Source: Candidatus Kaiserbacteria bacterium
GTDB lineage: Bacteria; Patescibacteriota; Minisyncoccia; Phycocordibacterales; UBA2100
DNA: 64,000 nucleotides
Direction: 5' to 3'
NCBI GenBank assembly: GCA_016186765.1
Contig: JACPLD010000001.1
Span: 133,647 to 197,646, forward strand
This document shows, in pieces, positions 8,631 through 57,812 of the stretch (its first letter is position 1; every line of letters begins with the position of its first letter). The notes under the pieces were generated by a model, which saw nothing but the letters and a program-made list of their open reading frames with translations, did no database searches and was not told the origin of the DNA. Both the position numbers and the translations under genes were made by a program.

Positions 8631-9226
8631 AGAAATTCTGCTATGAGGATCTCTCTTGCTTTTGCGAGCGCTCGGCCGCGATGGCTATAGCGATTCTTTT
8701 CCTCGACGGACATTTCTCCGCCGGTTTTGCCAGCTTCATCGTAGAGAAAAATCGGATCGTAACCGAACGATCGCTCGCCTCTCGGTTCACGTGTGATGTG
8801 GCCATATACTTCTTCGCGGCACGTTTTTAGATCTCCCCTCGCTGGATCGTAGATAGCGATCACCGTAACGAATCGCGCCGTTCTCTTTTCATCAGGAACA
8901 TCCTTCATCGCATCAAGCAGCTTTCTGTTTCTGTCGGCATCAGTGCCCGGTACGTACCGAGCGCTCTGTATGCCGGGAGCGCCGTCGAGCGCATCCACTT
9001 CGAGCCCCGAATCGTCGGCAAGCGTGAGCATACCAGCCTTCGTTCCGTATTCTCTCGCCTTGATGACCGAGTTTTCCTTGAATGTCGCGCCTGCTTCCTC
9101 CGGTTCGAATCCTTCAAGCTCCGGTACATGGTTGATGTCAATGACGTTGAACGGAACCCCTTCAAACGCATGGCGTATCTCCGGCATCTTTCCCTCGTTC
9201 CGAGTCGCGATAAGTAATTCTCTCAT
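8627..9226 (-). CDS. rdgB: non-canonical purine NTP pyrophosphatase (dITP/XTP pyrophosphatase, RdgB/HAM1 family)
   Basis: 199 aa MRELLIATRNEGKMPEIRHAF...ADDSGLEVDALDGAPGIQSARY, characteristic of the Ham1/RdgB family. Confidence 0.85.
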
Positions 9227-9227
9227 G

Positions 9228-9253
9228 CCCTAGTGGCTATACCCTAGTGGCTA
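9228..9253. repeat. CTAG-rich direct-repeat element (ccctagtggctata x2) between the atpG stop and the rdgB start
   Basis: ccctagtggctataccctagtggcta. The same module recurs at 12275..12299 and, inverted, at 22051..22113. Confidence 0.7.
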
Positions 9254-9257
9254 ACGA

Positions 9258-10172
9258 CTATTTCATCGCCTCAATGCCAGAAGTGATCTCGGAAACTTCG
9301 CGAGTAATCGCGGCCTGGCGGGCTTTGTTGAAGGTGCGCGTGAGCTCCCCGGCCATTTCTTTCGCCTTGTCGGTCGCGTTCTTCATCGCGACCATGCGCG
9401 CGCTATGTTCGGATGCTTTTGATTCGAGCATCTTGTGGAATATGGCGATGTTAACCAGGCGCGGCACGAGAGCCGCCAAGACCTCGTCGGCATCCGGCTC
9501 GATCGTGTATACCGCTACCCCATTGCCATTTTCAACCTCGGCATACTTGCCACGCACCGGGAGGATCTCCTCGACCATGTGCTCCACAGCTCTTCGCGAG
9601 AGCGGCAGCACTTTGTGCACGGCTGGATGCTGTTCGAAAATTGATCGGAAATTTGTATAGGCGACGCGTACTTCGCGGACGCCTCCTGCTCGATACAGAG
9701 AAATCGCTTGGTCCGTGATTACGCGGAATTCGCGCTCGTCAATGGCATCAGCAATGTTCGTGTGAAAATGCACCACGTTGTATCCGCTACGGAGCGCAAA
9801 TTCGTATCCACGCTTCCCGAGACAAAGAAAAATGAGATCATCGCGTGAAAGATTCTCTTCTTTGATGAACTTCTCGGTTTCTCGGATGACGGCACTGTTG
9901 AGGGCGCCAGCAAGTCCTTTATCACTCGTGATGATGATGATCACTACCTTGCCCTCCGCAGGCACGTGCATTAAGGAGTGCCGTGCGACGTTCGTGCTGC
10001 CGGAGATACCGGCGAGCACCCGCAGTCCTGCACGGGCATATGGCCTGGAGGAAATGGCACGCTCTTGGCTCTTGCGCATCTTCACGGCGGATACCGCCTC
10101 CATGGCATGCGTGACCGTACCAGTCTTTTTGTATGACTGGATCTTCAGCTTAATGTTCTTTAAACTCGCCAT
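9258..10172 (-). CDS. atpG: F0F1 ATP synthase subunit gamma
   Basis: 304 aa MASLKNIKLKIQSYKKTGTVTHAMEAVSAVKMRKSQERA..., typical gamma N-terminus; conserved operon position. Confidence 0.9.
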   Translation of the reverse strand: MASLKNIKLKIQSYKKTGTVTHAMEAVSAVKMRKSQERAISSRPYARAGLRVLAGISGSTNVARHSLMHVPAEGKVVIIIITSDKGLAGALNSAVIRETEKFIKEENLSRDDLIFLCLGKRGYEFALRSGYNVVHFHTNIADAIDEREFRVITDQAISLYRAGGVREVRVAYTNFRSIFEQHPAVHKVLPLSRRAVEHMVEEILPVRGKYAEVENGNGVAVYTIEPDADEVLAALVPRLVNIAIFHKMLESKASEHSARMVAMKNATDKAKEMAGELTRTFNKARQAAITREVSEITSGIEAMK

Positions 10173-12212: not shown

Positions 12213-12303
12213 AAGTGATTAGCCAATAGGGTTTAGGGTATAGGGTTTTTGAATTTGGTTTTTTGATTTCATATCTAGTGGCTATACCCTAGTGGCTAGA
12301 CCC
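12213..12303. repeat. composite CTAG-rich repeat module upstream of atpH (tagggtttagggtataggg + ctagtggctataccctagtggctag)
   Basis: Shares the ctagtggctataccctagtggcta unit with 9228..9253 and the tagggtatagggtttaggg unit with 22051..22113. The 3' copy overlaps the last codons of atpF. Confidence 0.7.
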
Positions 12304-12738
12304 TCGTAATATTCTCTCTGCCGCGAGCATTGCCGCACGAGCTATTTCCCGCTCACTCTCCTTCAGGGCCTGGCGCTTAGCTTCTTCGGCACGCAGCGCC
12401 GCGTCTTTGAGCGTGCTTGAAGCTCGCGATTCGGCTTCTCTCACAATCTCTTCGGCCTTCTCTTCAGCACGGCTTCGCGCAGCCGCGACGATTCCTTCAG
12501 CCTCTCGAGACGCGCTGCCGATAATCCCCTCCCCTTTCGTTTTTGCTTCAGCAAGTCGCCCTGCCGCAGCTTCTGCGTTCTGCACGCCCTCGGCAATTTT
12601 CTTCCTGCGATCGTCGATCATCTTCAAAACAGGTTCATAGAGAAAGTACCATAGGACTGCAAGCAGAATGCCGAAGTTGAACGCCTGCACCAAGAGCAGT
12701 TTCCAGTTGATGCCAAACGCTGCGAACAACTCGCTCAT
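12289..12738 (-). CDS. atpF: F0F1 ATP synthase subunit b
   Basis: 149 aa; N-terminal TM helix (LLLVQAFNFGILLAVLWYFLY) followed by a long charged coiled-coil rich in A/E/R. Confidence 0.75.
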   Translation of the reverse strand: MSELFAAFGINWKLLLVQAFNFGILLAVLWYFLYEPVLKMIDDRRKKIAEGVQNAEAAAGRLAEAKTKGEGIIGSASREAEGIVAAARSRAEEKAEEIVREAESRASSTLKDAALRAEEAKRQALKESEREIARAAMLAAERILRGSSH

Positions 12739-22036: not shown

Positions 22037-22050
22037 GGCGAAGTGGACGA

Positions 22051-22113
22051 GCCACTAGCCACTAGGGTATAGGGTTTAGGGAATTTCACTAGTGGCTATC
22101 CCCTATTAGCTAG
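22051..22113. repeat. composite CTAG-rich repeat module upstream of murF (inverted and direct copies of the ctagtggcta / tagggtataggg units)
   Basis: gccactagccactagggtatagggtttagggaatttcactagtggctatcccctattagctag, between the ftsI stop (22117) and the murF start (22036). Confidence 0.7.
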
Positions 22114-22116
22114 TTC

Positions 22117-23829
22117 CTATCTATCGGGCGGGATATCGTAGTAGTTAATCAAAAACTTCGTAATGTCGAGAAACGGCCGCGCGAGCGTTGCCGAGGCGAA
22201 TTGAGCGCCGTGCGGTTCGACCGCTACAAGAAAGACAATAAACTGTGGATCATGCGCGGGGAAATAACCGAAGAACGAGTGCAGGTAGCGATCTTTGTAG
22301 TAGCCTCCTCCGCCTGGAATTGCTATCTGGGCCGTCCCGGTCTTTGCGGCGATCGAGTAGTGCTCTTGCTTGAGGACCCCTCCCAGAAGCGCAGTATCAA
22401 ATACCTTCACCAGCATGTCGGTCACCGTCTGAACCGTCTCCTCCTTCAGTACACGTGGCCCTTGCGGCGGGAGGATGCTTCGAACAATGCCGCTCTCGAG
22501 CTTAATATCGGAGACGACATGCGGTGATGGCAGCACTCCATCATTTGCCAAGGCACTAAGCGCGCGGATCATCTCGACGCCGGTCACTGCGATCCCCTGT
22601 CCGAAGGAAGCCGAAGCAAAGTCGACGTCGTAGGCTCGATCGAGACTTTTCACTAGCCCCGTCGCCTCATTAGGAAGATCGATGCCGGTTTTTTCACCGA
22701 GGCCGAAGGCATGAACGTATTCGCGAAACACATTATGACCGACCCGCCCCTCGATGAACGAGGCACCAAGGTTCAACGATTGATTCAACACCTCTTGCAT
22801 GTCGACGACCCCGCGCGCTTTGCCGTCATAGTTGCATATCTCCTTCCCGCTCTTTTGAATGCAGCCGCGGTCCTCATAGGTCGTCTTCGGCCTTATCGCA
22901 CCTACATCCAAGCCAGCGGCAATGGTGAGAGGCTTCATGATTGAGCCCATCTCGTAGACATTTTCGACCAACGGGTTCCCGAACATGGAGACCTCGGTGG
23001 TGTTGTAGGTGTTAGGATCGAAGCCCGGCCGCGCCGCGATCGCGATGATCTCACCGGTGTGAGGGTCCATGATGATCCCGCCCCCGATCTTCGGCGTATA
23101 GGTGCTCATCACCGCCTCGAGTGTCTTCTCGAGACGCGCCTGCACCTGTGGCTCGATGGAGGTAATGACATTCCCATAGCTCTCGGCGGGGTCGGAAAGC
23201 GCCGTTCCGACATTGATGAAGATCTCCGCGAATGGATTGACGTACAAACCCGAGGCTGCCTTCGCAAGAGTTTTTTCGTAGCTTCGCTCAAGCCCGTACC
23301 TGCCGACCTTCTCGTCGCCCCGATACCCAACGAAGCCGATCGCATGCGCCGCAAGCACACCTCCCGGATAGTTGCGCCACTTATCTTGAACGAGGATCAC
23401 GCCCAGAAGCTTGAGCGAGCGGATACGCTGTGCAGTATCGTCCGGAAGTCGAAAGGCTACCTCTTCATACGGGTCATCATACTTGCTGGCACTCGCAAAA
23501 AAGCGCTCGCGATCAGGTACGGCGAACGAGAGCGTCTGGTAGGCAGCTTCGGGATCTTCAAGCTCCTTCGGCACGATAGCGAGGCGCCATCCACTCTGCA
23601 TCAGCGCCGCTGCAACGAGATCGCCATCGCGCTTCGTAAAGAATATGGAGCCGCGGTCCTCGACGTCGCGTACGTCGGCGACGTACTGGCCGCGAGCGTC
23701 TAGCTCATATCGATCGCCGTGCACGATTTGCACGAAATACAGCCGCGCCGCAAGGAATGCCGCGGCGAGGATGAAGAGGGCGGAAAGGACTCTCGCTCGC
23801 TCGACAAAGCCGAGACTCTTAAATTTCAT
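22117..23829 (-). CDS. ftsI: penicillin-binding protein (FtsI-type transpeptidase)
   Basis: ORF track 22117..23985; start taken at MKFKSLGF (membrane anchor) so that it overlaps the ftsL stop by 11 nt. SxxK (GSIMKP) and KTG (AAKTGTAQ) motifs. Confidence 0.85.
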   Translation of the reverse strand: MKFKSLGFVERARVLSALFILAAAFLAARLYFVQIVHGDRYELDARGQYVADVRDVEDRGSIFFTKRDGDLVAAALMQSGWRLAIVPKELEDPEAAYQTLSFAVPDRERFFASASKYDDPYEEVAFRLPDDTAQRIRSLKLLGVILVQDKWRNYPGGVLAAHAIGFVGYRGDEKVGRYGLERSYEKTLAKAASGLYVNPFAEIFINVGTALSDPAESYGNVITSIEPQVQARLEKTLEAVMSTYTPKIGGGIIMDPHTGEIIAIAARPGFDPNTYNTTEVSMFGNPLVENVYEMGSIMKPLTIAAGLDVGAIRPKTTYEDRGCIQKSGKEICNYDGKARGVVDMQEVLNQSLNLGASFIEGRVGHNVFREYVHAFGLGEKTGIDLPNEATGLVKSLDRAYDVDFASASFGQGIAVTGVEMIRALSALANDGVLPSPHVVSDIKLESGIVRSILPPQGPRVLKEETVQTVTDMLVKVFDTALLGGVLKQEHYSIAAKTGTAQIAIPGGGGYYKDRYLHSFFGYFPAHDPQFIVFLVAVEPHGAQFASATLARPFLDITKFLINYYDIPPDR

Positions 23830-24250
23830 TGAGCTCAACGTCGGCGTTTGCAGTATCTGCCTCAGCGGGCCCGCCTGCGGAGAGGGTCCCCGGACGGTGA
23901 ATGTAGAGCGTCCGAGCGACGGGAGAGAGGCCAAGGCGCACGCCATCCTCGGGTCCGATGCCCTGTGAGAGAGCGAAGTATTCACGCTCGAGTTTTGAAA
24001 CGGCAGTCACGAGATGAGCCGACTCCGCAAGCGCTTCTTTTCTCGCGATGACGTTCAAGATCGTCGAACCGACAAAATACACGTAGGAGAACGCGAGGAG
24101 TACTACAGCGCCGATGAGTACGCGAAAGAGCAAATGCTCCGCGGGATGTTCGGAGGTAAGCGAAAACGCTCGATGCCTACCGGCAAAATCAAGCCTCCCC
24201 TGAAATATCGAGGGAGCGTACTTGCTTATTTTTTGTATTTTGGCTCTCAT
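23819..24250 (-). CDS. ftsL: FtsL-like cell-division protein (small bitopic membrane protein)
   Basis: 143 aa; single TM (LLFRVLIGAVVLLAFSYVYFV); position between rsmH and ftsI. Confidence 0.5.
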   Translation of the reverse strand: MRAKIQKISKYAPSIFQGRLDFAGRHRAFSLTSEHPAEHLLFRVLIGAVVLLAFSYVYFVGSTILNVIARKEALAESAHLVTAVSKLEREYFALSQGIGPEDGVRLGLSPVARTLYIHRPGTLSAGGPAEADTANADVELNEI

Positions 24251-24330: not shown

Positions 24331-25434
24331 AAGCTTTGCGCTGCGTGCACGAGGGTTCTCTCGCACCTCTTCCCTGCTCGGCACAATTGGTTTCCTCGAA
24401 AGCAAGCGGCCCTCCTGCTCACGGACCCACTCGGCAAATGCACGCTTGACTATCCTGTCCTCAAGGCTATGAAAGGATATGACCGCGAGGCGGCCGCGAG
24501 GCTTAAGCAGCTGCCACGCCGCCTGCAAGCCTTCGGTGAGTGCCGCAAGCTCGTCGTTCACGGCGATGCGAAGCGCCTGAAACGCACGCGTCGCGGGATG
24601 TATCCGGCCTCGCCTTAAGCGAACGGGGGTCGCCGCTGCAATCGTCTGGGCAAGTTCGCGGGAAGTCGCGAAAGGTTTCTTCATCCTGCGCTCGACTATC
24701 GCTTTGGCAATCCTTCGTGCGTATCGCTCGCCACCGAATCCGAAAAAAATATCGGCGAGGGTTCTCTCACTCCACGTGTTCACGATGGTCGCTGCAGTTA
24801 GTTCAGCCTCCTTGCCTCCATATGTCATGAGGAGCGGCTCGTCAGAAAGAAACGAAAATCCTCTTCCGGAGTTGAGCTGGTAGCTGCTCCACCCTAGATC
24901 GAAGAGAGCCTTCGTCATCGTCGTTACGCCGAGCGCACGAAGCTCACGTGTCATATTTCTGAAATTGCCGCACACCACGTGGACTTTCGCGCGAACACCG
25001 GCAAGACGCCTGCGGGCACGCACTACTGCCTGTGGATCTGCGTCGAAGCCGACGAGGAGTCCCCGAGGCCCGAGGCCCTTCGAGAGCTCTCTCGCGTGAC
25101 CTGCCCCGCCGAGTGTCGCGTCCACGACAATATCGTCTGGCTGCACGTCGAGCGCACGCATGACTTCGTGTAAAAGAACGGGTCGGTGCCTTTGGCTCGC
25201 CGTAGCTTTAGCGAAGGCGGCTGCCCGCCTCCGCTCTACCGAGCTTCGGCGAGACGATGACAGCACCGGGTTGCTGGAGGAAAAATGTCGCGTGCGCATA
25301 TTTTTTTGATCCTCCAGCCACCTTGTGCAACCATCCGTCTTTATAGAGCTCCGATCTGACCGAGCTTCTTCGCCATCTGCTCTGCGTTGCGGTCGATTCC
25401 GCGTTTGTAATTTCCCCAGCGATCGGCATCCCAA
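24298..25434 (-). CDS. rsmH: 16S rRNA (cytosine1402-N4)-methyltransferase
   Basis: 378-aa ORF (true start probably internal); RsmH/MraW motifs PVLLHEV...DATLGGAGHA...FDLGWSSYQL. Confidence 0.9.
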   Translation of the reverse strand: MGCRSLGKLQTRNRPQRRADGEEARSDRSSIKTDGCTRWLEDQKNMRTRHFSSSNPVLSSSRRSSVERRRAAAFAKATASQRHRPVLLHEVMRALDVQPDDIVVDATLGGAGHARELSKGLGPRGLLVGFDADPQAVVRARRRLAGVRAKVHVVCGNFRNMTRELRALGVTTMTKALFDLGWSSYQLNSGRGFSFLSDEPLLMTYGGKEAELTAATIVNTWSERTLADIFFGFGGERYARRIAKAIVERRMKKPFATSRELAQTIAAATPVRLRRGRIHPATRAFQALRIAVNDELAALTEGLQAAWQLLKPRGRLAVISFHSLEDRIVKRAFAEWVREQEGRLLSRKPIVPSREEVRENPRARSAKLRVIEKLGVRD

Positions 25435-25923: not shown

Positions 25924-27582
25924 ATGCTCCGGGTTTTTAGAACAGCAGATACGGAGACTCTCAATGAAATAGCTGAAGAGACGCGCGTGCGGAAAGTCCC
26001 CACGTACGTGATGCTTTTTTCTATGGGTTCGCAGTTCGACCATCTCATCGTGCGAGAGCTCGCAAAGCTCGGGGCATTTTGCGTTGTCGCTGATCCTTCG
26101 ACCGTTACCGCCGACGACGTGAAAAAGGTGGCGCCAGCGGGAATCATCCTCTCGGGAGGTCCTGCATCGGTAGAAACAGAGCCTCCGCCGTTTGATGAGA
26201 AAATCTTCGATCTCGGGATCCCGACACTCGGCATTTGCCTCGGATTTCAAATGTGGGCGAAGCATGTGGGTGCAAAGGTCCCGCCTTCTGAAAAACGCGA
26301 GTTTGGCGTCCACACGTTCACGATTAGCGCGGATGATCCGCTTTTTGCAGGCATTCCTCGCGAGACACAGGTACTCCATAGTCATGGCGATGCCGTGCTT
26401 CCAGATTCTGTCATTACAGTTCTCGGCACTACCGACAATGCACCCGTTGCGGCCGGGAGATTCAAGCATCTATGGGGGGTGCAGTTCCACCCCGAGGTGA
26501 CCGAAACAGTCGAGGGAGCACACATCTATGATAATTTCCTCACGATCTGCGGCATTAGCGAGCGCTTCCCTGCGCACAATGTGGCGGAGCAAAAGATAGC
26601 TGAACTGAAAAAACTCGTCGGCCCCTCGACTCCGCTCGGGGTAAACAAAAAAGTGCTCATCGCGCTGTCGGGCGGTTCGGATTCTTCGGTCGTTGCATTT
26701 CTTCTAAAGCGCGCTTTAGAAGAAATGCCCCGAGCAAAGTCGAGGGGCCAACCCTTCGACTCCGCTCAGGGTAAACTCCGAGGAGTTTACATCCGCGGCA
26801 TCGATCGTCCCGACGACGAGGCATACGTGAGAACATATTTCGGCAAGGAAGATTGGATTGAGCTCGAGATTGCTGATGCAACGGCGCTTTTTCTCGATGC
26901 ATTGCGTGGAAAGACTGCAATGCGCGAGAAACGGCTGGCAATGCAGAGCGTGTATCGCGACGTGCTCGAAGAGAAGATAAAAGAGTTTGGAGCGGATTTC
27001 ATCGCACAAGGCACACTCTATACCGACCTCCGAGAAAGCGGCCTTGGGACAGCCACCGGTGCGCGTGTCGCCGAGATAAAGGTGCACCACAATGTCGGCA
27101 TCACCTTCTCTGTTCCCGAACTTCGCCCTCTCGAGGATCAGGTGAAAGACTCGGCGAGAAATATCGGACGCGAGATCGGCGTGCCCGAAGACCTTGTCCT
27201 CCGACATCCCTTCCCCGGTCCTGGCCTCGTCGTTCGCATCGAAGGAGAGGTCACCGCCGAAAAACTTGCCGCCGCGCGCGCGGTGGATGGCATCTACATC
27301 GAAGAACTTCGCAAGGCCAACCTCTACTCGACCGTGTGGCAAGCAGGCGCTGTCGTCACGAGTTCAGAGCATACTGTTTCCAAGGGAGACGACGCCGGCA
27401 TGGGACACGTTGTCGCGCTGTGGGCAGTATGGAGCGTGAATGGCTTTACCGCACGCTTTGCGCAGCTACCGTACGATTTTCTGGGCAAAGTCTCCCGCCG
27501 CATCACCAATGAAATCCGCGAGGTCGGCGCTGTCACCTATCGCATCTCCAACAAACCTCCTGCTACGATAGAATGGGGTTAA
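25924..27582 (+). CDS. guaA: GMP synthase (glutamine-hydrolysing), carrying in-frame repeat-element insertions
   Basis: 552 aa; GATase domain (GICLGFQMW), PP-loop SGGSDSS, C-terminal dimerisation domain ending PATIEWG. Start may be the internal MLFSMGSQ. Extra segments PSTPLGVNK and EEMPRAKSRGQPFDSAQGKL are encoded by GC-rich repeat copies. Confidence 0.9.
   Translation: MLRVFRTADTETLNEIAEETRVRKVPTYVMLFSMGSQFDHLIVRELAKLGAFCVVADPSTVTADDVKKVAPAGIILSGGPASVETEPPPFDEKIFDLGIPTLGICLGFQMWAKHVGAKVPPSEKREFGVHTFTISADDPLFAGIPRETQVLHSHGDAVLPDSVITVLGTTDNAPVAAGRFKHLWGVQFHPEVTETVEGAHIYDNFLTICGISERFPAHNVAEQKIAELKKLVGPSTPLGVNKKVLIALSGGSDSSVVAFLLKRALEEMPRAKSRGQPFDSAQGKLRGVYIRGIDRPDDEAYVRTYFGKEDWIELEIADATALFLDALRGKTAMREKRLAMQSVYRDVLEEKIKEFGADFIAQGTLYTDLRESGLGTATGARVAEIKVHHNVGITFSVPELRPLEDQVKDSARNIGREIGVPEDLVLRHPFPGPGLVVRIEGEVTAEKLAAARAVDGIYIEELRKANLYSTVWQAGAVVTSSEHTVSKGDDAGMGHVVALWAVWSVNGFTARFAQLPYDFLGKVSRRITNEIREVGAVTYRISNKPPATIEWG
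26622..26790. repeat. cluster of three copies (+, -, +) of a ~25-bp GC-rich repeat element plus an 8-bp-stem palindrome, all in-frame inside guaA
   Basis: cccctcgactccgctcggggtaaac (26622..26646); ccccgagcaaagtcgagggg (26728..26747, reverse complement with 2 mismatches); cccttcgactccgctcagggtaaac (26752..26776); gtaaactccgaggagtttac palindrome (26771..26790). Confidence 0.8.
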
Positions 27583-30676: not shown

Positions 30677-30748
30677 CCCCGCGGCAGGAATCGAACCCAC
30701 ATTACGAGCTCCGGAAGCTCGCGTCCTATCCGTTGAACGACGCGGGGC
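30677..30748 (-). tRNA. tRNA-Arg (anticodon CCG)
   Basis: Reverse complement CCCCGCGTCGTTCAACGGATAGGACGCGAGCTTCCGGAGCTCGTAATGTGGGTTCGATTCCTGCCGCGGGGA folds as a cloverleaf with anticodon loop UUCCGGA; CCA not encoded. Confidence 0.85.
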
Positions 30749-30770
30749 GAGACAACAGCGTATCATCGTG

Positions 30771-31727
30771 TCAGTCCGTCTCAAAAAGAGCGCTCAAGGA
30801 TTCTCCGTCCTCGATGCGGTGTATCGCCTCGCCGAATACCTCACCGACCGAGACGATCTCCACCTTGGACGAGAATGATCTATCCGTTGATATCGTATCC
30901 GTGATAAAAAGTTTCTTGATGGACGAGCCATCGAGTGTGGCTTTCGCTTCCCCGCTCAGGAGTCCGTGGGTCGTGCAGGCGTAGACTTCGCGGGCACCGT
31001 TTTCCGTGAGAAGCTTCGCGGCGGTTGCAAGCGTGCCGCAGGTGTCAGCCATGTCGTCCACGATGAGCGCGATCTTATCCTTCACGTCTCCGATGAGCTT
31101 CATGCGGGTCACTTTGTTCGGAAGCTCCCGTTCTTTGTGAATGATGGCAAGCTCAGCTTCTTTCATGAGACGTTTGGCGTACGACTGGGCGCGCACGACG
31201 CCGCCGACATCGGGAGACACCACAACGAACTTACCTTCTGCGAGAGCTTTCTTGAAGAACTCCCGCAGGTGCGGAATAAACACGCGCCGCGCGAGCAGAT
31301 TGTCGACGATCGCCGTCCGGAAGTAGCCGCCGATGGCGTCGTTGTGCAGATCCATCGTGAGAAAACGATTCGCGCCCAACGTCTCCACTATCGCCGCAAA
31401 AACGCGCGCGGAGATTGGCTCGCGAGGGCGAGACTTTCTGTCCTGTCGCGCGTAGCCGAAGTATGGAACGACCGCTGTTATTTCGCTTGCAGAGGCTCCG
31501 CGAGCTGCATCTATCGCAAGAAAAAGTCGCACCCAATTTTCCGCCGGAGGCGGAGTAGACTGTATGAGAAAAACATGTTTTCCCCGAAGATTCTCGAGGA
31601 ATTGCACATATTGTTCGCCATCGGAAAAGGTTTTGCATTTCACCTCCCCGAGCGGCATCCCGAGCTTCGCCGCAATTTTCTCCGCGAGTCCGTCGTTGCT
31701 GCCAAGACTGAAAACGCGAAAGTCCAT
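30771..31727 (-). CDS. prs: ribose-phosphate pyrophosphokinase
   Basis: 318 aa; PRPP-binding loop ALIVDDMADTCGT; strong Prs conservation throughout. Confidence 0.95.
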   Translation of the reverse strand: MDFRVFSLGSNDGLAEKIAAKLGMPLGEVKCKTFSDGEQYVQFLENLRGKHVFLIQSTPPPAENWVRLFLAIDAARGASASEITAVVPYFGYARQDRKSRPREPISARVFAAIVETLGANRFLTMDLHNDAIGGYFRTAIVDNLLARRVFIPHLREFFKKALAEGKFVVVSPDVGGVVRAQSYAKRLMKEAELAIIHKERELPNKVTRMKLIGDVKDKIALIVDDMADTCGTLATAAKLLTENGAREVYACTTHGLLSGEAKATLDGSSIKKLFITDTISTDRSFSSKVEIVSVGEVFGEAIHRIEDGESLSALFETD

Positions 31728-31753
31728 ATGGATTCGCAGTATAGCAGATTTTG

Positions 31754-31794
31754 TGGACCCAGCGAGAATCGAACTCGCGCCTCTGCAATGTTCA
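31754..31794 (-). pseudogene. 3' half of an interrupted tRNA (acceptor/T-arm portion) - outer split tRNA, 3' segment
   Basis: Reverse complement TGAACATTGCAGAGGCGCGAGTTCGATTCTCGCTGGGTCCA is a paralog of the 3' half of the nested tRNA-Ala. Its acceptor strand TGGGTCC pairs with the GGGCCCA of the 5' half at 31905..31939. Confidence 0.55.
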
Positions 31795-31808
31795 CCCCGT
31801 TAGATAAT
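31795..31808. repeat. left arm of a perfect 14-bp inverted repeat flanking the nested tRNA-Ala
   Basis: ccccgttagataat; reverse complement of attatctaacgggg at 31891..31904. Confidence 0.85.
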
Positions 31809-31814
31809 TTTCTG

Positions 31815-31885
31815 TGGACCTAGCGGGAATCGAACCCGCGCCTCTGCAATGCGAATGCAGCGTTTTGCCACTGAACTATAGGCCC
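31815..31885 (-). tRNA. tRNA-Ala (anticodon CGC), intact, nested inside the interrupted tRNA
   Basis: Reverse complement GGGCCTATAGTTCAGTGGCAAAACGCTGCATTCGCATTGCAGAGGCGCGGGTTCGATTCCCGCTAGGTCCA: G3-U70, anticodon stem CTGCA/TGCAG, loop UUCGCAU, T arm GCGGG-TTCGATT-CCCGC; 71 nt with a short D arm. Confidence 0.8.
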
Positions 31886-31890
31886 GCTGC

Positions 31891-31904
31891 ATTATCTAAC
31901 GGGG
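31891..31904. repeat. right arm of the perfect 14-bp inverted repeat flanking the nested tRNA-Ala
   Basis: attatctaacgggg. Confidence 0.85.
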
Positions 31905-31939
31905 CGTAGTGCAGCGTTTTACCACTGAACTATGGGCCC
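31905..31939 (-). pseudogene. 5' half of the interrupted tRNA (acceptor, D arm, 5' anticodon stem and first 5 loop nt) - outer split tRNA, 5' segment
   Basis: Reverse complement GGGCCCATAGTTCAGTGGTAAAACGCTGCACTACG, near-identical to the 5' half of the nested tRNA-Ala, with G3-U70 retained. Confidence 0.55.
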
Positions 31940-31974
31940 GTTTCTCTCGGACGCGAGAGAATATAGCACGTCTT

Positions 31975-32045
31975 TCGGGCTGCCGAGAATCGAACTCGGG
32001 CTACAAGCACCCCATGCTCGCGTACTACCACTATACGACAGCCCG
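31975..32045 (-). tRNA. tRNA-Pro (anticodon GGG)
   Basis: Reverse complement CGGGCTGTCGTATAGTGGTAGTACGCGAGCATGGGGTGCTTGTAGCCCGAGTTCGATTCTCGGCAGCCCGA: acceptor CGGGCTG/CAGCCCG, anticodon loop AUGGGGU, T arm CCGAG-TTCGATT-CTCGG. Confidence 0.85.
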
Positions 32046-32047
32046 GA

Positions 32048-32118
32048 TCGGGCCGCCGGGAATCGAACCCGGTCTACACGCACCCGAAGCGTGCGTACTA
32101 CCGGTATACTACGGCCCG
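32048..32118 (-). tRNA. tRNA-Pro (anticodon CGG)
   Basis: Reverse complement CGGGCCGTAGTATACCGGTAGTACGCACGCTTCGGGTGCGTGTAGACCGGGTTCGATTCCCGGCGGCCCGA: anticodon stem CACGC/GCGTG, loop UUCGGGU. Only 2 nt separate it from the previous tRNA. Confidence 0.85.
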
Positions 32119-32119
32119 G

Positions 32120-32193
32120 TGCACCCTGAAGGATTCGAACCTTCGGCCTTTCGAATGTGAATCGAACGCTCTAACCAACTGAGCTAAGGGTGC
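32120..32193 (-). tRNA. tRNA-Val (anticodon CAC)
   Basis: Reverse complement GCACCCTTAGCTCAGTTGGTTAGAGCGTTCGATTCACATTCGAAAGGCCGAAGGTTCGAATCCTTCAGGGTGCA: anticodon loop UUCACAU. 1 nt from the neighbouring tRNA-Pro. Confidence 0.85.
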
Positions 32194-43346: not shown

Positions 43347-43380
43347 AGCAGTATTCTACACTTTTGGCTATAGTTCCCGA

Positions 43381-43953
43381 ATGCGAACAATTTTGCCTGC
43401 GAGCAAGAACTCCGCGCTGCGCAAGAAAGCGCAAGAGATACCGCCCTCGGAAATAACGGGCAAGCGCACGCAAAGGCTCATCAAAGAGATGAAAACATTG
43501 CTTGCAAAAGAAGAGCACGGCGTCGCGCTTGCCGCCCCGCAGGTCGGTGAGTCGCTACGGCTTTTCATCATCTCCGGTCGAGCGCTCCTTCGACAAGCTC
43601 AGGATAAATTGCCCGCGCATCCGAGTCGTGAATATTTGCAAAGTGAACAGTCTACCGACCTGTCCCGAGCGCAGTCGAGGGACCAGGTCTACATCAATCC
43701 CGAGCTGATCAAGATGTCGCGCGGGAGACGTGAAAAGCACGAGGGCTGTCTCTCTGTTCGCGGCAAGTGGGGCATGGTGCCGCGGGCCGAAAAGGCAACC
43801 ATTCGTGCCTACAACGAGCGAGGCTCACGCTTCACGCGCGGCGCATCCGGTTTTCTCGCGCACATCTTCCAGCACGAGATGGACCATCTCGAAGGCATCC
43901 TCTATACCGATAAAGCGATGCACCTCTATGACGAATCCGAAAAAGGAAAGTGA
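43381..43953 (+). CDS. def: peptide deformylase, carrying an in-frame repeat-element insertion
   Basis: ORF track 43336..43953; start taken at MRTILPA. PDF motifs GVALAAPQVG, EGCLSVRG, QHEMDHLEG. ~36 extra residues (GRALLRQAQDKLPAHPSREYLQSEQSTDLSRAQSRD) lie between motif 1 and the VYINPE segment. Confidence 0.85.
   Translation: MRTILPASKNSALRKKAQEIPPSEITGKRTQRLIKEMKTLLAKEEHGVALAAPQVGESLRLFIISGRALLRQAQDKLPAHPSREYLQSEQSTDLSRAQSRDQVYINPELIKMSRGRREKHEGCLSVRGKWGMVPRAEKATIRAYNERGSRFTRGASGFLAHIFQHEMDHLEGILYTDKAMHLYDESEKGK
43575..43690. repeat. pair of inverted copies of the GC-rich repeat element inside def (in-frame)
   Basis: ccttcgacaagctcaggataaa (43587..43608, + orientation) and tcccgagcgcagtcgaggga (43663..43682, - orientation), related to the guaA copies cccttcgactccgctcagggtaaac and ccccgagcaaagtcgagggg. 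Confidence 0.7.
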
Positions 43954-49265: not shown

Positions 49266-49961
49266 TCAGAAAAGTATCCGAATTCGGACTCTATTCATTA
49301 CGTTGGTGCTGGTCGCCGTGCTGTTGGCCGCACCAGTGAAGACCGTGCCGCCAATACCGCCCGTGCCGCCCGTGCCGCCCGTGCCGCCTGTTGCACCGCC
49401 GTTATTGTTGCTCCCGCCACCTGAGGCATCAACAGTGCCGCCTGCATCACCCGCGCCGCCTGTGCTCCCCGCTGCAGTGTTGCCGCCTGTGCGTGCTCGC
49501 GAGCGCGTGTCGTTGACGATTGCGCCGCCCGAGGTAGACGTGGCCGTGATAGAAGAACTGCTGATATTTGCGGTCGTCGAGGCAATTATTTCAATCTCGG
49601 TGTCGTTCAGCGTATTAGACGATGACGCAGTCGACGATGCGCTGCCGGTCGAGACAAATCCTCCATCGCCTCCATTCCCGCCATTGCCGCCATTGCCGCC
49701 ACTCGCGTTGCCGTTGTTGAAGCTGCCAGTGCCAGTTGCCATGACTGATCCTCCAGCTCCTCCCATGCCGCCTGTGCTCCCCGCTGCAGTGTTGCCACCT
49801 GTTTCGGCCGTTGAGGAACTCGTGTTGGTAATCGAGCCGGAGTTCTCGACAGTCACGGTGATCGAACTGCTACTAATATCCGCAAAGGCAAACGACGCGA
49901 CTGCGAACGCACCGATTATTGCGGCGAAGAATACTATCCACGCATCCCTTGTTGTGGTCAT
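49266..49961 (-). CDS. secreted Gly/Ser/Thr-rich repetitive protein
   Basis: 231 aa; signal peptide MTTTRDAWIVFFAAIIGAFAVASFAFA; two internal copies of the module TGGNTAAGSTGGxGxAGGxV...GGNGGNGG.... The plus-strand Pro-rich ORF 49303..49968 is its mirror artefact. Confidence 0.5.
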   Translation of the reverse strand: MTTTRDAWIVFFAAIIGAFAVASFAFADISSSSITVTVENSGSITNTSSSTAETGGNTAAGSTGGMGGAGGSVMATGTGSFNNGNASGGNGGNGGNGGDGGFVSTGSASSTASSSNTLNDTEIEIIASTTANISSSSITATSTSGGAIVNDTRSRARTGGNTAAGSTGGAGDAGGTVDASGGGSNNNGGATGGTGGTGGTGGIGGTVFTGAANSTATSTNVMNRVRIRILF

Positions 49962-56067: not shown

Positions 56068-56508
56068 TCAATACCAGTAGCAGCTGTATCCCCCATAGCA
56101 GTAGTCGTAGGAATCGTACCAGTAGTCATCGTACCAGTAGTCATCGTACCAGTAGTCATAGTTATATGTCGGGTAGTAGTAGTACGTATCGTAGGGATAG
56201 TACCAGTAGTCGTAATAGTACGCTGGATACGTATACGTCGGATATGAATAGGAGTATGACGGATATGAATACGAGTACGATGGATAGGAGTACGAGTAGG
56301 ACGTCGGGTACGTGTACTGCGGCGCGCTCACATTCACATATGGCGAGGTGTTGATGTAGGTGTATGGAGCGAAGGTATGACTCGAGTAATTCAAACTCGG
56401 CATTTGATACGGATACGAGGAGTAGTACTGGGCGAGCACCGGCGTTGGCGAAGCAATCGCGAGCACTCCAAGCAAGACACCATATGCGAGCGTCTGCTTC
56501 ATATCCAT
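56068..56508 (-). CDS. secreted tyrosine-rich low-complexity protein (paralog-like of 1189..1833)
   Basis: 146 aa; signal peptide MDMKQTLAYGVLLGVLAIASPTPVLA then YSYSYPSYSYSYPSYSYSYP...DYWYDDYWYDDYWYD. Confidence 0.55.
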   Translation of the reverse strand: MDMKQTLAYGVLLGVLAIASPTPVLAQYYSSYPYQMPSLNYSSHTFAPYTYINTSPYVNVSAPQYTYPTSYSYSYPSYSYSYPSYSYSYPTYTYPAYYYDYWYYPYDTYYYYPTYNYDYWYDDYWYDDYWYDSYDYCYGGYSCYWY

Positions 56509-56582
56509 AACACTATCATCGCCACATGATTAGCAAAGGAAGAATGAGGGAACGCACCGTTTGCTATACTTCTGTCAATTCC

Positions 56583-57812
56583 ATGAGAAAAACAACGGCT
56601 CTAACACTTGGCCTTCTCCTCCTCTTGAGTTTTTTGTTTTTCATGTCGCCGGTAGGGCGATACGTTGTCGGTACACCGTTTTCAGGCAACCCTGAACCCC
56701 CTCCACCGCCGCGCAGCGAGCAACTCTCCTTCGAGCTCGCAGAGGGATTTGCGGCACATCTTTTCGCAGAGAATGTCCCCGGGGCGCGCGTGATGCACCG
56801 TGATCCGAAAGGAACACTTCTTGTCTCCGAAACATCTCAAGGCAAGATCGTTGCGCTTCCAAACCTTGACAGCGATGGTAAGGCTGATCGCCTGATCACG
56901 GTGCTCGACGGCCTCAATAACCCGCATGGATTGCTAATGCTTTGCCCGGACACTGGAAACGTCAGCGCCGATCAGGATGTATGTCTACTTTATGTAGCGG
57001 AAACTCATCGAGTCGCAGCGTACGCTTATGATGCGGATACGTACTCGGCAACGTTCGAAAAAACGCTCATTAATCTTCCTGACGACGGTGGCCACTTCAC
57101 GCGTACCCTGATGCTTCATCCCGACAACAAGCGGATACTCGTATCCGTCGGCTCATCGTGCAATGTGTGCATGGAAAACGACGAGCGGCGCGCCACCGTC
57201 CTTGCGATCGATCTCGAAATAAAGAAGATGAGCGTTTTTGCGACAGGACTCCGCAACACAGTCTTTATGACCACCCACTACGTCACGGGAGACATTTGGG
57301 GTACCGACATGGGCCGCGATTACTTGGGAGACGACCTACCGCCGGATGAAATAAACATTATCCGCCCCTCGACTTCGCTCGGGGTAAACAACTATGGGTG
57401 GCCGTTCTGCTATGGGAAAGGCATCCGCGATTCGACGTTCCGCTCCGACAAGGAATTCGACTGCACGACGACGGACACATCGCACCTCGACATCCCCGCG
57501 CACTCCGCTCCTCTCGGTATTGCGTTCGTTCCCGAAGAAGGATGGCCGGAAGAGATGTGGTACGACGCCTTGGTCGCCTACCATGGTTCCTGGAACCGAA
57601 GCACTCCGACGGGCTATCGTGTAGTGCGCTTCCCGCTCGACGCGGAGGGCAATCCCGAAGGAGGACCGCAAGATTTTATGACCGGATTTATGAATGAACG
57701 CGGCACCGTCATCGGTCGCCCTGTTGATATTCTTCTCGAGCCAGGTGGTGTCATGTTCGTCTCCGACGACAAAGCTGGTGTAATCTACCGTATCGCAAGA
57801 ACGGGTGCGTAA
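56583..57812 (+). CDS. PQQ-dependent sugar (glucose/sorbosone) dehydrogenase-family beta-propeller protein, carrying an in-frame repeat-element copy
   Basis: ORF track 56526..57812; start taken at MRKTTALTLG (signal peptide). Typical motifs NPHGL, GLRNTVFM, DIWGTDMG, NNYGWPF, MFVSDDKAGVIYRI. Segment RPSTSLGV is encoded by the repeat element. Confidence 0.7.
   Translation: MRKTTALTLGLLLLLSFLFFMSPVGRYVVGTPFSGNPEPPPPPRSEQLSFELAEGFAAHLFAENVPGARVMHRDPKGTLLVSETSQGKIVALPNLDSDGKADRLITVLDGLNNPHGLLMLCPDTGNVSADQDVCLLYVAETHRVAAYAYDADTYSATFEKTLINLPDDGGHFTRTLMLHPDNKRILVSVGSSCNVCMENDERRATVLAIDLEIKKMSVFATGLRNTVFMTTHYVTGDIWGTDMGRDYLGDDLPPDEINIIRPSTSLGVNNYGWPFCYGKGIRDSTFRSDKEFDCTTTDTSHLDIPAHSAPLGIAFVPEEGWPEEMWYDALVAYHGSWNRSTPTGYRVVRFPLDAEGNPEGGPQDFMTGFMNERGTVIGRPVDILLEPGGVMFVSDDKAGVIYRIARTGA
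57365..57389. repeat. copy of the GC-rich repeat element, in-frame inside the dehydrogenase gene
   Basis: cccctcgacttcgctcggggtaaac, 24/25 identical to the guaA copy at 26622..26646 and read in the same frame (PST(S/P)LGVN). Confidence 0.8.

Follow-up and report, generated by a model that had tools for sequence, protein, structure and literature searches.

A REP-like 24 nt hairpin repeat lying in frame within guaA, def and a sugar dehydrogenase gene of Candidatus Kaiserbacteria: a probable miniature mobile family

INTRODUCTION

Tagged REPs (repetitive extragenic palindromes) are repeats of 20-40 nt with an unpaired GTAG or CGTC tag, reported from more than 80 species in 8 phyla (Di Nocera, De Gregorio and Rocco 2013, PMC3733652). 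The CGTC REPs, found in 5 phyla, have no known dedicated transposase; the Rickettsia palindromic elements RPE-4 and RPE-6 are members, and Neisseria dRS3 also falls within the tagged superfamilies (PMC3733652). Tagged REPs accept G·T pairs in their stems, form dimers and clusters, insert into other palindromes and occur in frame inside open reading frames (ORFs), including more than 70 in Opitutus terrae, Rickettsia genes, uvrA, dnaE and tRNA synthetase genes, where singletons encode 7-9 aa and dimers 15-30 aa (PMC3733652). Here we describe a repeat of about 24 nt, termed the unit, six copies of which lie in guaA, def and a sugar dehydrogenase gene of a Candidatus Kaiserbacteria bacterium of the candidate phyla radiation (CPR). 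The DNA analysed, referred to as the window, is a 64-kb stretch (positions 133,647 to 197,646 of contig JACPLD010000001.1).

Palindromic repeats (RPE-1) in frame within unrelated Rickettsia genes were reportedly described by Ogata and colleagues in 2000, and in 2008 Elhai and colleagues are said to have proposed small dispersed repeat (SDR) units of the Nostocaceae, 21-27 nt long, nested and placed in heptamer tandem repeats, as the smallest mobile elements. That SDR work is cited in PMC5861425, PMC4390886 and PMC3116915, and SDRs have been reported as essentially confined to one cyanobacterial subgroup (PMC5861425). REPINs, known from systems with REP-associated tyrosine transposases (RAYTs), nearly always lie outside genes, belong to one lineage and pass down by vertical inheritance (Bertels and Rainey 2011, PMC3116915).

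An earlier note on this DNA, made from the letters alone, had read the copies as an active or recently active miniature mobile element. The best explanation of the evidence given below is that the six copies are a miniature repeat of a REP-like, very small, non-autonomous family which has inserted in frame. We give this a rough probability of 0.6, a figure that covers the whole explanation: a REP-like family, single-strand copying in trans and toleration of the copies within genes.

RESULTS AND DISCUSSION

The unit and its copies in the window

The six copies share the consensus CCYTCGAC-N2-3-GCTCRGGRTAAAC. All are intragenic, with three in guaA, two in def and one in the dehydrogenase gene, and all three ORFs are intact. 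guaA (25924-27582, + strand) encodes a glutamine-hydrolysing GMP synthase of 552 aa, which matches PDB 7sbc (E=1.9e-91) and 1gpm (E=4.2e-88) and shows 100% identity with a Candidatus Kaiserbacteria protein at NCBI. At its site 1, the singleton unit 1 (26622-26646, + strand; CCCCTCGACTCCGCTCGGGGTAAAC) encodes PSTPLGVN in codons that directly precede the P-loop strand; the folding strand of the unit, U' (the other being U), is here the - strand. Site 2 holds unit 2, an inverted copy (26728-26747, - strand; CCCCGAGCAAAGTCGAGGGG) with U' on the + strand and encoding PRAKSRG, and unit 3 (26752-26776, + strand; CCCTTCGACTCCGCTCAGGGTAAAC), encoding PFDSAQGK. With CCAA between them, these two make up a REPIN-like inverted dimer of ~49 nt, of which unit 2, without the GTTTA tag, is the left arm of the hairpin.

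The peptide deformylase gene def (43378-43953, + strand, start codon approximate; PF01327 and PDB peptide deformylase matches) encodes a protein 100% identical to the NCBI Kaiserbacteria Def. Its left unit (43587-43608, + strand; CCTTCGACAAGCTCAGGATAAA) is a variant with a 2-nt spacer, encoding LRQAQDK, and its right unit (43663-43682, - strand; TCCCGAGCGCAGTCGAGGGA) is inverted, with U' on the + strand, encodes SRAQSRD and has 1 mismatch to the core. The remaining copy (57365-57389, + strand; CCCCTCGACTTCGCTCGGGGTAAAC) encodes PSTSLGVN within the gene of a pyrroloquinoline quinone-dependent sugar dehydrogenase family protein (56526-57812, + strand; PF22807/PF07995). It is identical to guaA unit 1 at 24/25 positions and is read in the same frame, which argues for copying between unrelated genes.

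The identity of these repeats is established. When the consensus CCCYTCGACWNSGCTCRGGGTAAAC was searched for with up to 3 mismatches, exactly three + strand copies were found in the window (26622-26646, 26752-26776 and 57365-57389), against a chance expectation of 0.00 from 100 dinucleotide shuffles of the window. A looser core gave 36 matches in 193 kb of Kaiserbacteria DNA vs 8.3 in simulations; that DNA has about 24 clear copies, and the matches include mosaics upstream of guaA in L127 and L128 (L numbers denote DNA loci carrying copies or relatives, and P numbers protein orthologues). The earlier note had already placed the three guaA copies, the +/- pair in def and the dehydrogenase copy at these coordinates and given their sequences, identities and peptides, all of which are accurate. 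The copy at 26728 is, as claimed, the reverse complement of that at 26622 with 2 mismatches, both within the 3-nt spacer, and in the DNA counted here the motif is commoner than composition predicts.

Filled and empty alleles

Solved GuaA structures show alignment gaps exactly at PSTPLGV (site 1) and EMPRAKSRGQPFDSAQG (site 2), the latter following the helix after the P-loop strand. PST·LGVN at site 1 was found in 4/120 Kaiserbacteria GuaA orthologues (P0001, P0010, P0025 and P0103) and is missing from the two closest relatives, P0002 and P0003 (83% identity). In a codon-level DNA alignment, site 1 is empty in P0002, P0003, P0014, P0110 and P0020 (...GGC|GGC AAA AAA... or ...GCA|AAC AAA AAA...) and filled in P0010, P0025 and P0103 (...GGC CCC TCG ACT YCG CTC GGG GTA AAC AAA...), a net gain of 21 nt. 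The four filled alleles are scattered to four separate places of an approximate neighbour-joining (NJ) tree of the 120 sequences with insert columns masked, each beside empty neighbours. Site 2 is similarly patchy among the 120 orthologues, being empty (KEA|GAKLKG) in P0025, P0103 and P0014 and carrying the inverted dimer in many others. Orthologues with filled and empty alleles at identical codons are 70-83% identical.

A single site 2 dimer is read in two frames, giving PEQGRRAHPSTN in P0010 and RAPSRDNSPFDS in P0020; hence the dimer DNA is kept and the peptide is not. This, together with the occurrence of copies in both orientations and in intergenic DNA, upholds the view of the earlier note that selection acts on the DNA or RNA element rather than on the peptide. 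In P0110 an extra 24-nt unit (GTTCGACAAAGCTCACCGCAAGCC) is nested in the spacer of the + unit at site 2.

In the AlphaFold model of GuaA (mean predicted local distance difference test score, pLDDT, 78), residues 233-243 form coil between helix 220-232 and strand 244-248, with pLDDT ~64 at site 1. Residues 267-284 form coil between helix 252-266 and strand 285-291, with pLDDT <50 over residues 268-280. The P-loop strand and helix beside the inserts are confidently modelled. Judged by the fold topology, the two insert loops are expected at the sheet end remote from the ATP site. Gaps in solved structures, filled and empty alleles and low-confidence coil all agree with the proposal that these segments are insertions outside the conserved core.

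Other Kaiserbacteria carry unrelated inserts at the same places, SAQGGSASGG-type at GuaA site 1 and RPQGDTLKNSQGLTLK-type at site 2 (GuaA P0023, P0024, P0097, P0016, P0085, P0100 and P0105). GPTTGVGNP occurs in the dehydrogenase loop (P0237, P0239) and PASAKGHGGRS in RsmH (L122). At the peptide level, several repeat families may be using one set of permissive loops.

In the dehydrogenase, 115/120 orthologues read IIR-EG-xNYGWP where the window protein reads IIR-PSTSLGV-NNYGWP, so that the RPSTSLGV segment is extra, as the note had it. The 24-nt unit replaces host codons GAG GGC AAT, a net gain of 15 nt. In orthologue P0128, GAG CGC AAC is retained and the insertion is a clean +24 nt; P0123 is a third variant. 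The Def units occupy a loop that varies over 0-40 aa across orthologues, and ~25/120 orthologues share them. They were thought to be absent from the conserved core, and they do lie in a variable loop, but they replace native sequence of ARGSRN...PLP type with almost no change in length (the left unit adds ~1 aa). At the position of the right unit, P0273 (L132) has three tandem 24-nt copies. A further nested insert occurs in the Def of P0304.

Every net length change seen in the guaA, dehydrogenase and Def orthologues is a multiple of three (+21, +15, +24, +24 and 2x24), and the host frame is preserved at all copies, in agreement with the note. Units with a TAAAC tail and 3-nt spacer contain TAA in one + frame, and no in-gene copy examined uses that frame.

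Anatomy and covariation

The U' strand has the consensus 5'-GTTTA-Y-CC-Y-GA-G-C-NN(N)-G-T-C-GA-R-GG-R-3', which as an oligonucleotide is GTTTATCCTGAGCGAAGTCGAAGGA. An unpaired GTTTA tag is followed by a hairpin. Its stem has four canonical pairs, two G·A pairs in tandem and a single G-C pair, with a bulged T, and its loop is short (C-GNA-G-T); the unit totals 23-25 nt. In the window the tag is GTTTAC (GTAAAC when read as the reverse complement). Of 86 spacers of 3 nt, 60 are GNA; those of 2 nt are mostly TT or CT. Stability is a known property of C(GNA)G triloops and of tandem sheared G·A pairs. The anatomy is thus REP-like, a tag with a hairpin on one strand.

Covariation was assessed over 142 instances from a search pattern that fixed most positions, the GTTTAY tag included. 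Positions Y9:R22 are T:A in 113, C:G in 25, T:G in 4, and C:A or other in 0 (Fisher p = 5e-24). Positions Y6:N25 are T:A in 33, C:G in 52, T:G in 50, C:A in 2 and other in 5. Read on the opposite strand, the 54 G·T wobbles become A·C mismatches, which indicates that the fold is selected on U' only.

Palindromes and folds around the guaA units

A perfect palindrome missed by the earlier note, CATTTCTTCTAAAGCG (26696-26711) and CGCTTTAGAAGAAATG (26712-26727), abuts unit 2. Its left arm is made of the host codons (A)FLLKRA; its right arm is an inverted duplicate, encoding LEEM. The core CTTCTAAAGC/GCTTTAGAAG is common to the site 2-filled alleles of the window, P0010, P0110 and P0020, and is missing from empty alleles. 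The right junction of site 2 reads CAATCTGGG-AAA-CCCAGATTG in P0010, P0110 and P0020. The 8-bp-stem palindrome reported after the third guaA copy exists (GTAAACTCC-GA-GGAGTTTAC, 26771-26790), but its arms are 9 nt and the right arm is conserved host sequence, not element: the unit 3 tail pairs with the host codons GGA GTT TAC (G-V-Y), and empty alleles have AAA CTT AAG GGA GTT TAT at this position.

Units 26622 and 26728 are predicted to pair as RNA across the P-loop coding segment (z = -6.1), and the dimer hairpin of units 2 and 3 has z = -4.5 and -4.9. Inverted dimers thus fold strongly overall (z = -4.5 to -6). By this measure hairpin potential is seen in the inverted dimers, which fold better than shuffles, and not in single units.

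Distribution and genomic context

The exact pattern GTTTAYCCYGAGC-N2-3-GTCGARGG was scanned for in one genome per species, with phyla assigned by record title. This gave at least 120 loci, against ~4 chance matches expected under uniform base composition, and they fall in at least 20 phylum-level groups. Among the matches listed, the groups include many CPR classes, Cyanobacteria, Acidobacteriota, Chloroflexota, Planctomycetota, Verrucomicrobia, Omnitrophota, four proteobacterial classes and Bacteroidota, the last with cultured strains. Sixteen viral contigs from IMG/VR (L133-L148) also carry an exact copy. A lineage-specific family is ruled out by this spread.

Orientation is biased. Among the same matches listed, most copies in the cross-phylum sample are intergenic; downstream of genes, U' is in the sense direction in 36 cases vs 15 (p = 0.005), and inside ORFs it is U that is sense, in 22 vs 8, the orientation also of the window singletons. 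In tRNA or rRNA spacers U' was sense in 7/7 cases examined, and units adjoin tRNA genes in L003, L023, L092, L093 and L115. Flanks that pair to enclose the unit in a hairpin loop are commoner than in controls, at 28% vs 8% for perfect stems of at least 5 bp and 6% vs 0.1% for at least 8 bp. Terminator-like hairpins host the unit in their loops in L050, L109 and L075. A unit lies within the spacer of an opposite-orientation copy in L011, L018 and L080, and head-to-tail arrays occur in L082 and L010.

Several of these loci have further structure. L082, a Chitinophagaceae contig, has five head-to-tail copies with a 24-nt period; the L010 array (906-993) has a 64-nt period and is flanked by two tRNA genes within the spacer separating 16S from 23S in a cyanobacterial rRNA operon. 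In the cyanobacterial loci L061 (2210-2310), L080 and L002 the unit is nested in itself and within tandem heptamer repeats such as (GTTGACA)n. In L062, L085 and L047 (also L008, L028, L097 and L099) it occupies the loop of a ATTCCCGC...GCGGGAATGAC repeat matching the published CGTC-1 REP, which is Neisseria dRS3-like (PMC3733652); this nesting of REP in REP occurs in genomes of CPR, Sphingomonadales and Bacteroidota.

The Flavobacteriia loci L030, L098, L100, L104, L108 and L117 keep copies in tRNA-cluster spacers near tuf, where GAGAA is conserved on the 5' side of the unit and GGGAC/GTCCC forms an outer stem, which suggests long retention or a function there. A reading of these loci as CRISPR arrays was rejected; their shared neighbours (tuf, nusG, rplA, hpf and a XerC-like gene) identify them as ordinary Flavobacteriia synteny with tRNA clusters.

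A known RNA family was also rejected. Rfam searches gave only chance microRNA matches in E-value mode (26400-27000), and in gathering mode over 18 loci only rRNA, tRNA and one Flavo-1 match elsewhere. Compared by eye, the unit bore no convincing likeness to hammerhead or twister cores, to pieces of rRNA, tRNA, tmRNA, RNase P or signal recognition particle RNA, or to integron attC sites or Tn3 inverted repeats.

How the unit may spread

New copies would arise where single-stranded DNA is exposed, for example in hairpin loops or at replication and repair intermediates, by the copying or insertion of a single strand that folds into the hairpin. The factor responsible would act in trans from a gene away from the copies; an HUH/RAYT-like nuclease and the host replication or repair machinery are candidates. 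Later, copies might form inverted dimers, enter one another's loops, give rise to tandem duplicates and decay. In a gene-dense CPR genome the in-gene copies would be those tolerated by selection, with a length change in multiples of three, a position in a surface loop away from the active site and a frame free of TAA; most would place the non-folding strand in the mRNA. We favour a trans-acting factor that copies the unit through a single-stranded hairpin because four features match substrates of the HUH type: the tag with its hairpin, the fold on one strand, the bias towards hairpin loops and the missing target duplications. We infer the single-stranded intermediate, the trans-acting factor and copying that is still going on. 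The filled and empty alleles, the nested copy in P0110 and the triplication in P0273 speak for the active or recently active element of the earlier note, but mobility is read from these patterns, with no mobilising enzyme found.

Several observations weigh against this explanation. Pfam searches of the ~58 ORFs of the window detected no transposase, HUH enzyme, integrase or reverse transcriptase. An all-against-all BLAST of ORFs from the 120 cross-phylum loci listed revealed no recurring partner protein other than ordinary Flavobacteriia synteny. Insertion is not always clean: 9 host nt are replaced in the dehydrogenase gene, site 1 gained 21 rather than 24 nt, and native Def sequence was replaced. 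No target-site duplication was seen at any junction examined. Host-base replacement and the lack of such duplications fit templated repair better than classical transposition. In nearest-neighbour energy models, single units had no folding advantage over shuffled sequence on either strand. Only two variable pairs underlie the covariation, part of which could stem from a pair of inherited subfamilies. Since the NJ tree is approximate, what looks like repeated gain could be recombination between lineages or precise loss. A lagging-strand-template rule, prompted by the negative GC skew of the window, found no support: U' is on the locally G-rich strand in 50/112 loci (p = 0.30), which shows no replication-strand bias.

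Some of the same facts suit an enzyme-free route, in which a nascent strand switches to another copy by a few bases of microhomology, returns and pastes the unit over local sequence, while snap-back synthesis at the same events makes inverted duplicates of the flanks. Template switching with snap-back synthesis is favoured by the inverted flank copies at both site 2 junctions, the overwritten host bases (24 nt for 9 in the dehydrogenase gene, +21 at site 1, near-zero change in Def) and the absence of target-site duplications. No transposase was found among the window ORFs or the neighbours of the loci, and the published CGTC REPs likewise have no dedicated one (PMC3733652). However, the insertion in P0128 and the nested copy in P0110 are clean gains of 24 nt, the junction microhomologies are of 1-3 nt only and inconsistent, and this route accounts poorly for near-identity over at least 20 phyla, a conserved unpaired tag and the preference for hairpin loops. 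We regard it, taken with the snap-back step, as a tentative alternative with the odds against it.

Retention by the host of an RNA or DNA signal (an mRNA-stabilising or processing hairpin or a protein-binding site), with the in-gene copies as by-products, is unlikely. The sense orientation of U' in tRNA or rRNA spacers and downstream of genes would be expected of such a signal, as would G·T wobble tolerated on one strand only, as for an RNA hairpin; the orthologous spacer copies are conserved across Flavobacteriia genera, and REPs have been reported as RNA elements (PMC3733652). Within genes, however, the mRNA mostly carries the non-folding strand, both across phyla and in all window singletons, and patchy presence in close orthologues implies that no host function is needed at those sites. 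No Rfam family covers the unit, and function and mobility are in any case not mutually exclusive. Ordinary variable loops, selected for peptide properties such as flexible linkers and with secondary or coincidental DNA similarity, would fit the length-variable sites, the unrelated inserts held there by other orthologues (SAQGGSASGG, RPQGDTLKNSQGLTLK, GPTTGVGNP) and the Def loop. This very improbable alternative is already contradicted by the 24/25 nt identity between unrelated genes with 0 chance matches, by the same DNA in different frames and both orientations, by copies in intergenic DNA and in at least 20 phyla, and by covariation that tracks base pairing, not codons.

A REP-like family copied in trans as single strands could be taken further, to one 24-nt tagged mini-hairpin forming a single mobile family across most bacterial phyla and some phages, moved by a universal host function that acts on single-stranded hairpins, with no dedicated transposase. 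We consider this extension doubtful. If true, it would be the smallest and most widely distributed mobile element known, and would supply bacterial proteins generally with loop insertions of 7-8 residues, most visibly in gene-dense CPR genomes.

Core enzymes of CPR bacteria, in very small and gene-dense genomes, would on our explanation be remodelled by selfish repeats of 24 nt, and the unit would offer a concrete origin, open to dating, for the many short loop insertions that are lineage-specific in their proteins. Such insertions can confound alignments, gene trees and structure prediction, and the recurrent spurious or altered peptides (PST·LGVN, FDSAQGK, LRQAQDK, RAKSRG) could be flagged by annotation pipelines. 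Copies with this one-strand hairpin are spread over Patescibacteria, Bacteroidota, Cyanobacteria, Proteobacteria and phage contigs with no nearby partner enzyme, which sharpens the question posed for CGTC REPs of how such tiny repeats move. Cultured hosts that carry the unit include Chryseobacterium taeanense DSM 17071 and Epilithonimonas hungarica DSM 19684.

Other features of the window

A possible diverged relative of the unit (CCTTCGCTAAAGCTACGG; 25195-25223, - strand) lies in the N-terminal variable segment of rsmH, where its membership of the family is uncertain. It encodes AAFAKATAS between MRTRHFSSSNPV and HRPVLLHE (25180-25230, - strand). The segment is found in the more distant L124 but in neither of the closest relatives, L121 and L122, and it resembles a further short in-frame repeat that may be a diverged cousin of the unit.

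All Pfam matches in the window are to housekeeping functions: ATP synthase, mur and penicillin-binding protein (PBP) genes, mraZ/rsmH, prs, a class II aminoacyl-tRNA synthetase, an M50 peptidase, frr, a DNA polymerase III delta-like subunit, mreB, def/fmt, a P-type ATPase and a histidine kinase. The seemingly longer PBP gene (22117-23985) was considered as a further carrier of an insert and rejected, as only the start of the ORF is over-extended.

GC skew is negative in every 8-kb segment of 1-64000, and most ORFs are on the - strand. The skew indicates that the - strand is the leading strand, and guaA, def and the dehydrogenase gene, being on the + strand, would then be transcribed head-on to replication.

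A direct and inverted repeat, CTAGTGGCTATACCCTAGTGGCTA, occurs at 9225-9259, 12275-12307 and 22047-22118, in each case between predicted ORFs. A similar motif, tataccactataccc, lies upstream of mraZ in L127 and L128, and the repeat is a candidate promoter or regulator site. Tandem short-period repeats at 1205-1629 and 56086-56430, and at 49346-49775, fall in ORFs without a Pfam match; in one set the periods are of 15 to 21 nt and derive from GTAGTC/GTACCAGTA, and in the other the period is 9 nt, CCGCCCGTG. The region 30682-32120 (- strand) contains repeat families D4, D7 and D17, with GAATCGAACC-type segments that resemble tRNA T-arms, and is probably a tRNA gene cluster. The window repeat lists show no units next to it.

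Comparison with known repeat families

The unit and the tagged REPs share an unpaired terminal tag with a short stem-loop, G·T pairs that leave one functional strand, occurrence as singletons, inverted dimers, tandem groups and mosaics, and insertion in palindromes. Tagged REPs lie mostly downstream of genes; most copies of the unit in the cross-phylum sample are intergenic, and all six in the window are intragenic. The tag differs, being GTTTA(Y) and not GTAG or CGTC, and it conforms neither to GTAG/GYAG/GTRG nor, in the window copies with their GTTTAC, to the CGTC superfamily forms CGTC, TGTC and CCTC. Some related outer copies elsewhere end in TGTCAT-CCTGAGC (L011, L074), which suggests kinship with the CGTC REPs rather than membership. 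The CGTC stem has 8-9 bp, starts with A-T and T-A, and has a loop of 4-5 nt and a CCA tail. In the unit the first pair is Y:R, the next base is mostly C, there is no CCA tail, and the stem consists of four canonical pairs, two G·A and one G-C. The two conserved tandem G·A mismatches, the bulged T and the usual GNA or YT loop are unlike tagged REPs. The peptides of the unit match none in the published list of intragenic REP peptides (PMC3733652). The distribution, at least 20 phylum-level groups, compares with 8 phyla for all tagged REPs and 5 for the CGTC REPs.

The likeness to Rickettsia palindromic elements drawn by the earlier note holds for in-frame behaviour; in size and peptide RPE-1 differs, and the closer relatives are the short tagged REPs, including RPE-4 and RPE-6. 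Like the unit, RPE-1 (PMC10969869) is palindromic and lies in frame in unrelated housekeeping genes of a reduced genome, with peptides compatible with the fold. RPE-1, ~100-150 bp long and known only from Rickettsia, encodes a 30-50 aa peptide that is conserved, whereas the unit has 24 nt, encodes 7-8 aa in several frames and crosses phyla. The unit therefore shares with RPE-1 in-frame insertion at fold-compatible positions, and not its size or a conserved peptide.

The guaA site 2 dimer resembles REPINs in that two inverted REP-like units form a longer hairpin, in being non-autonomous, and in a tag and hairpin that would suit HUH tyrosine transposases. In contrast to REPINs, the unit is often a singleton and is shared across phyla, and the ~58 window ORFs include no RAYT gene. 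It does not fit a miniature inverted-repeat transposable element, which has terminal inverted repeats matching an insertion sequence together with target-site duplications: no such duplication was seen at any junction examined, host bases are sometimes lost, and no related insertion sequence was found in the window or the loci. Its standing as a repeated stem-loop unit of 20-40 nt, a trait of REPs in the broad sense, is supported by covariation, the energy model alone not being decisive.

SDRs, likened here by their described form, are similar in their 21-27 nt length, self-nesting and embedding in heptamers (L061, L080, L002, L011), and the unit may coincide with one SDR family, eight consensus sequences being reported for SDRs. 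In the literature library that was searched, DNA strings of the unit and its encoded peptides returned nothing relevant. In-frame intragenic miniature repeats are already documented (PMC3733652); what sets this unit apart is the tag, the stem with tandem G·A pairs and the unusually wide distribution.

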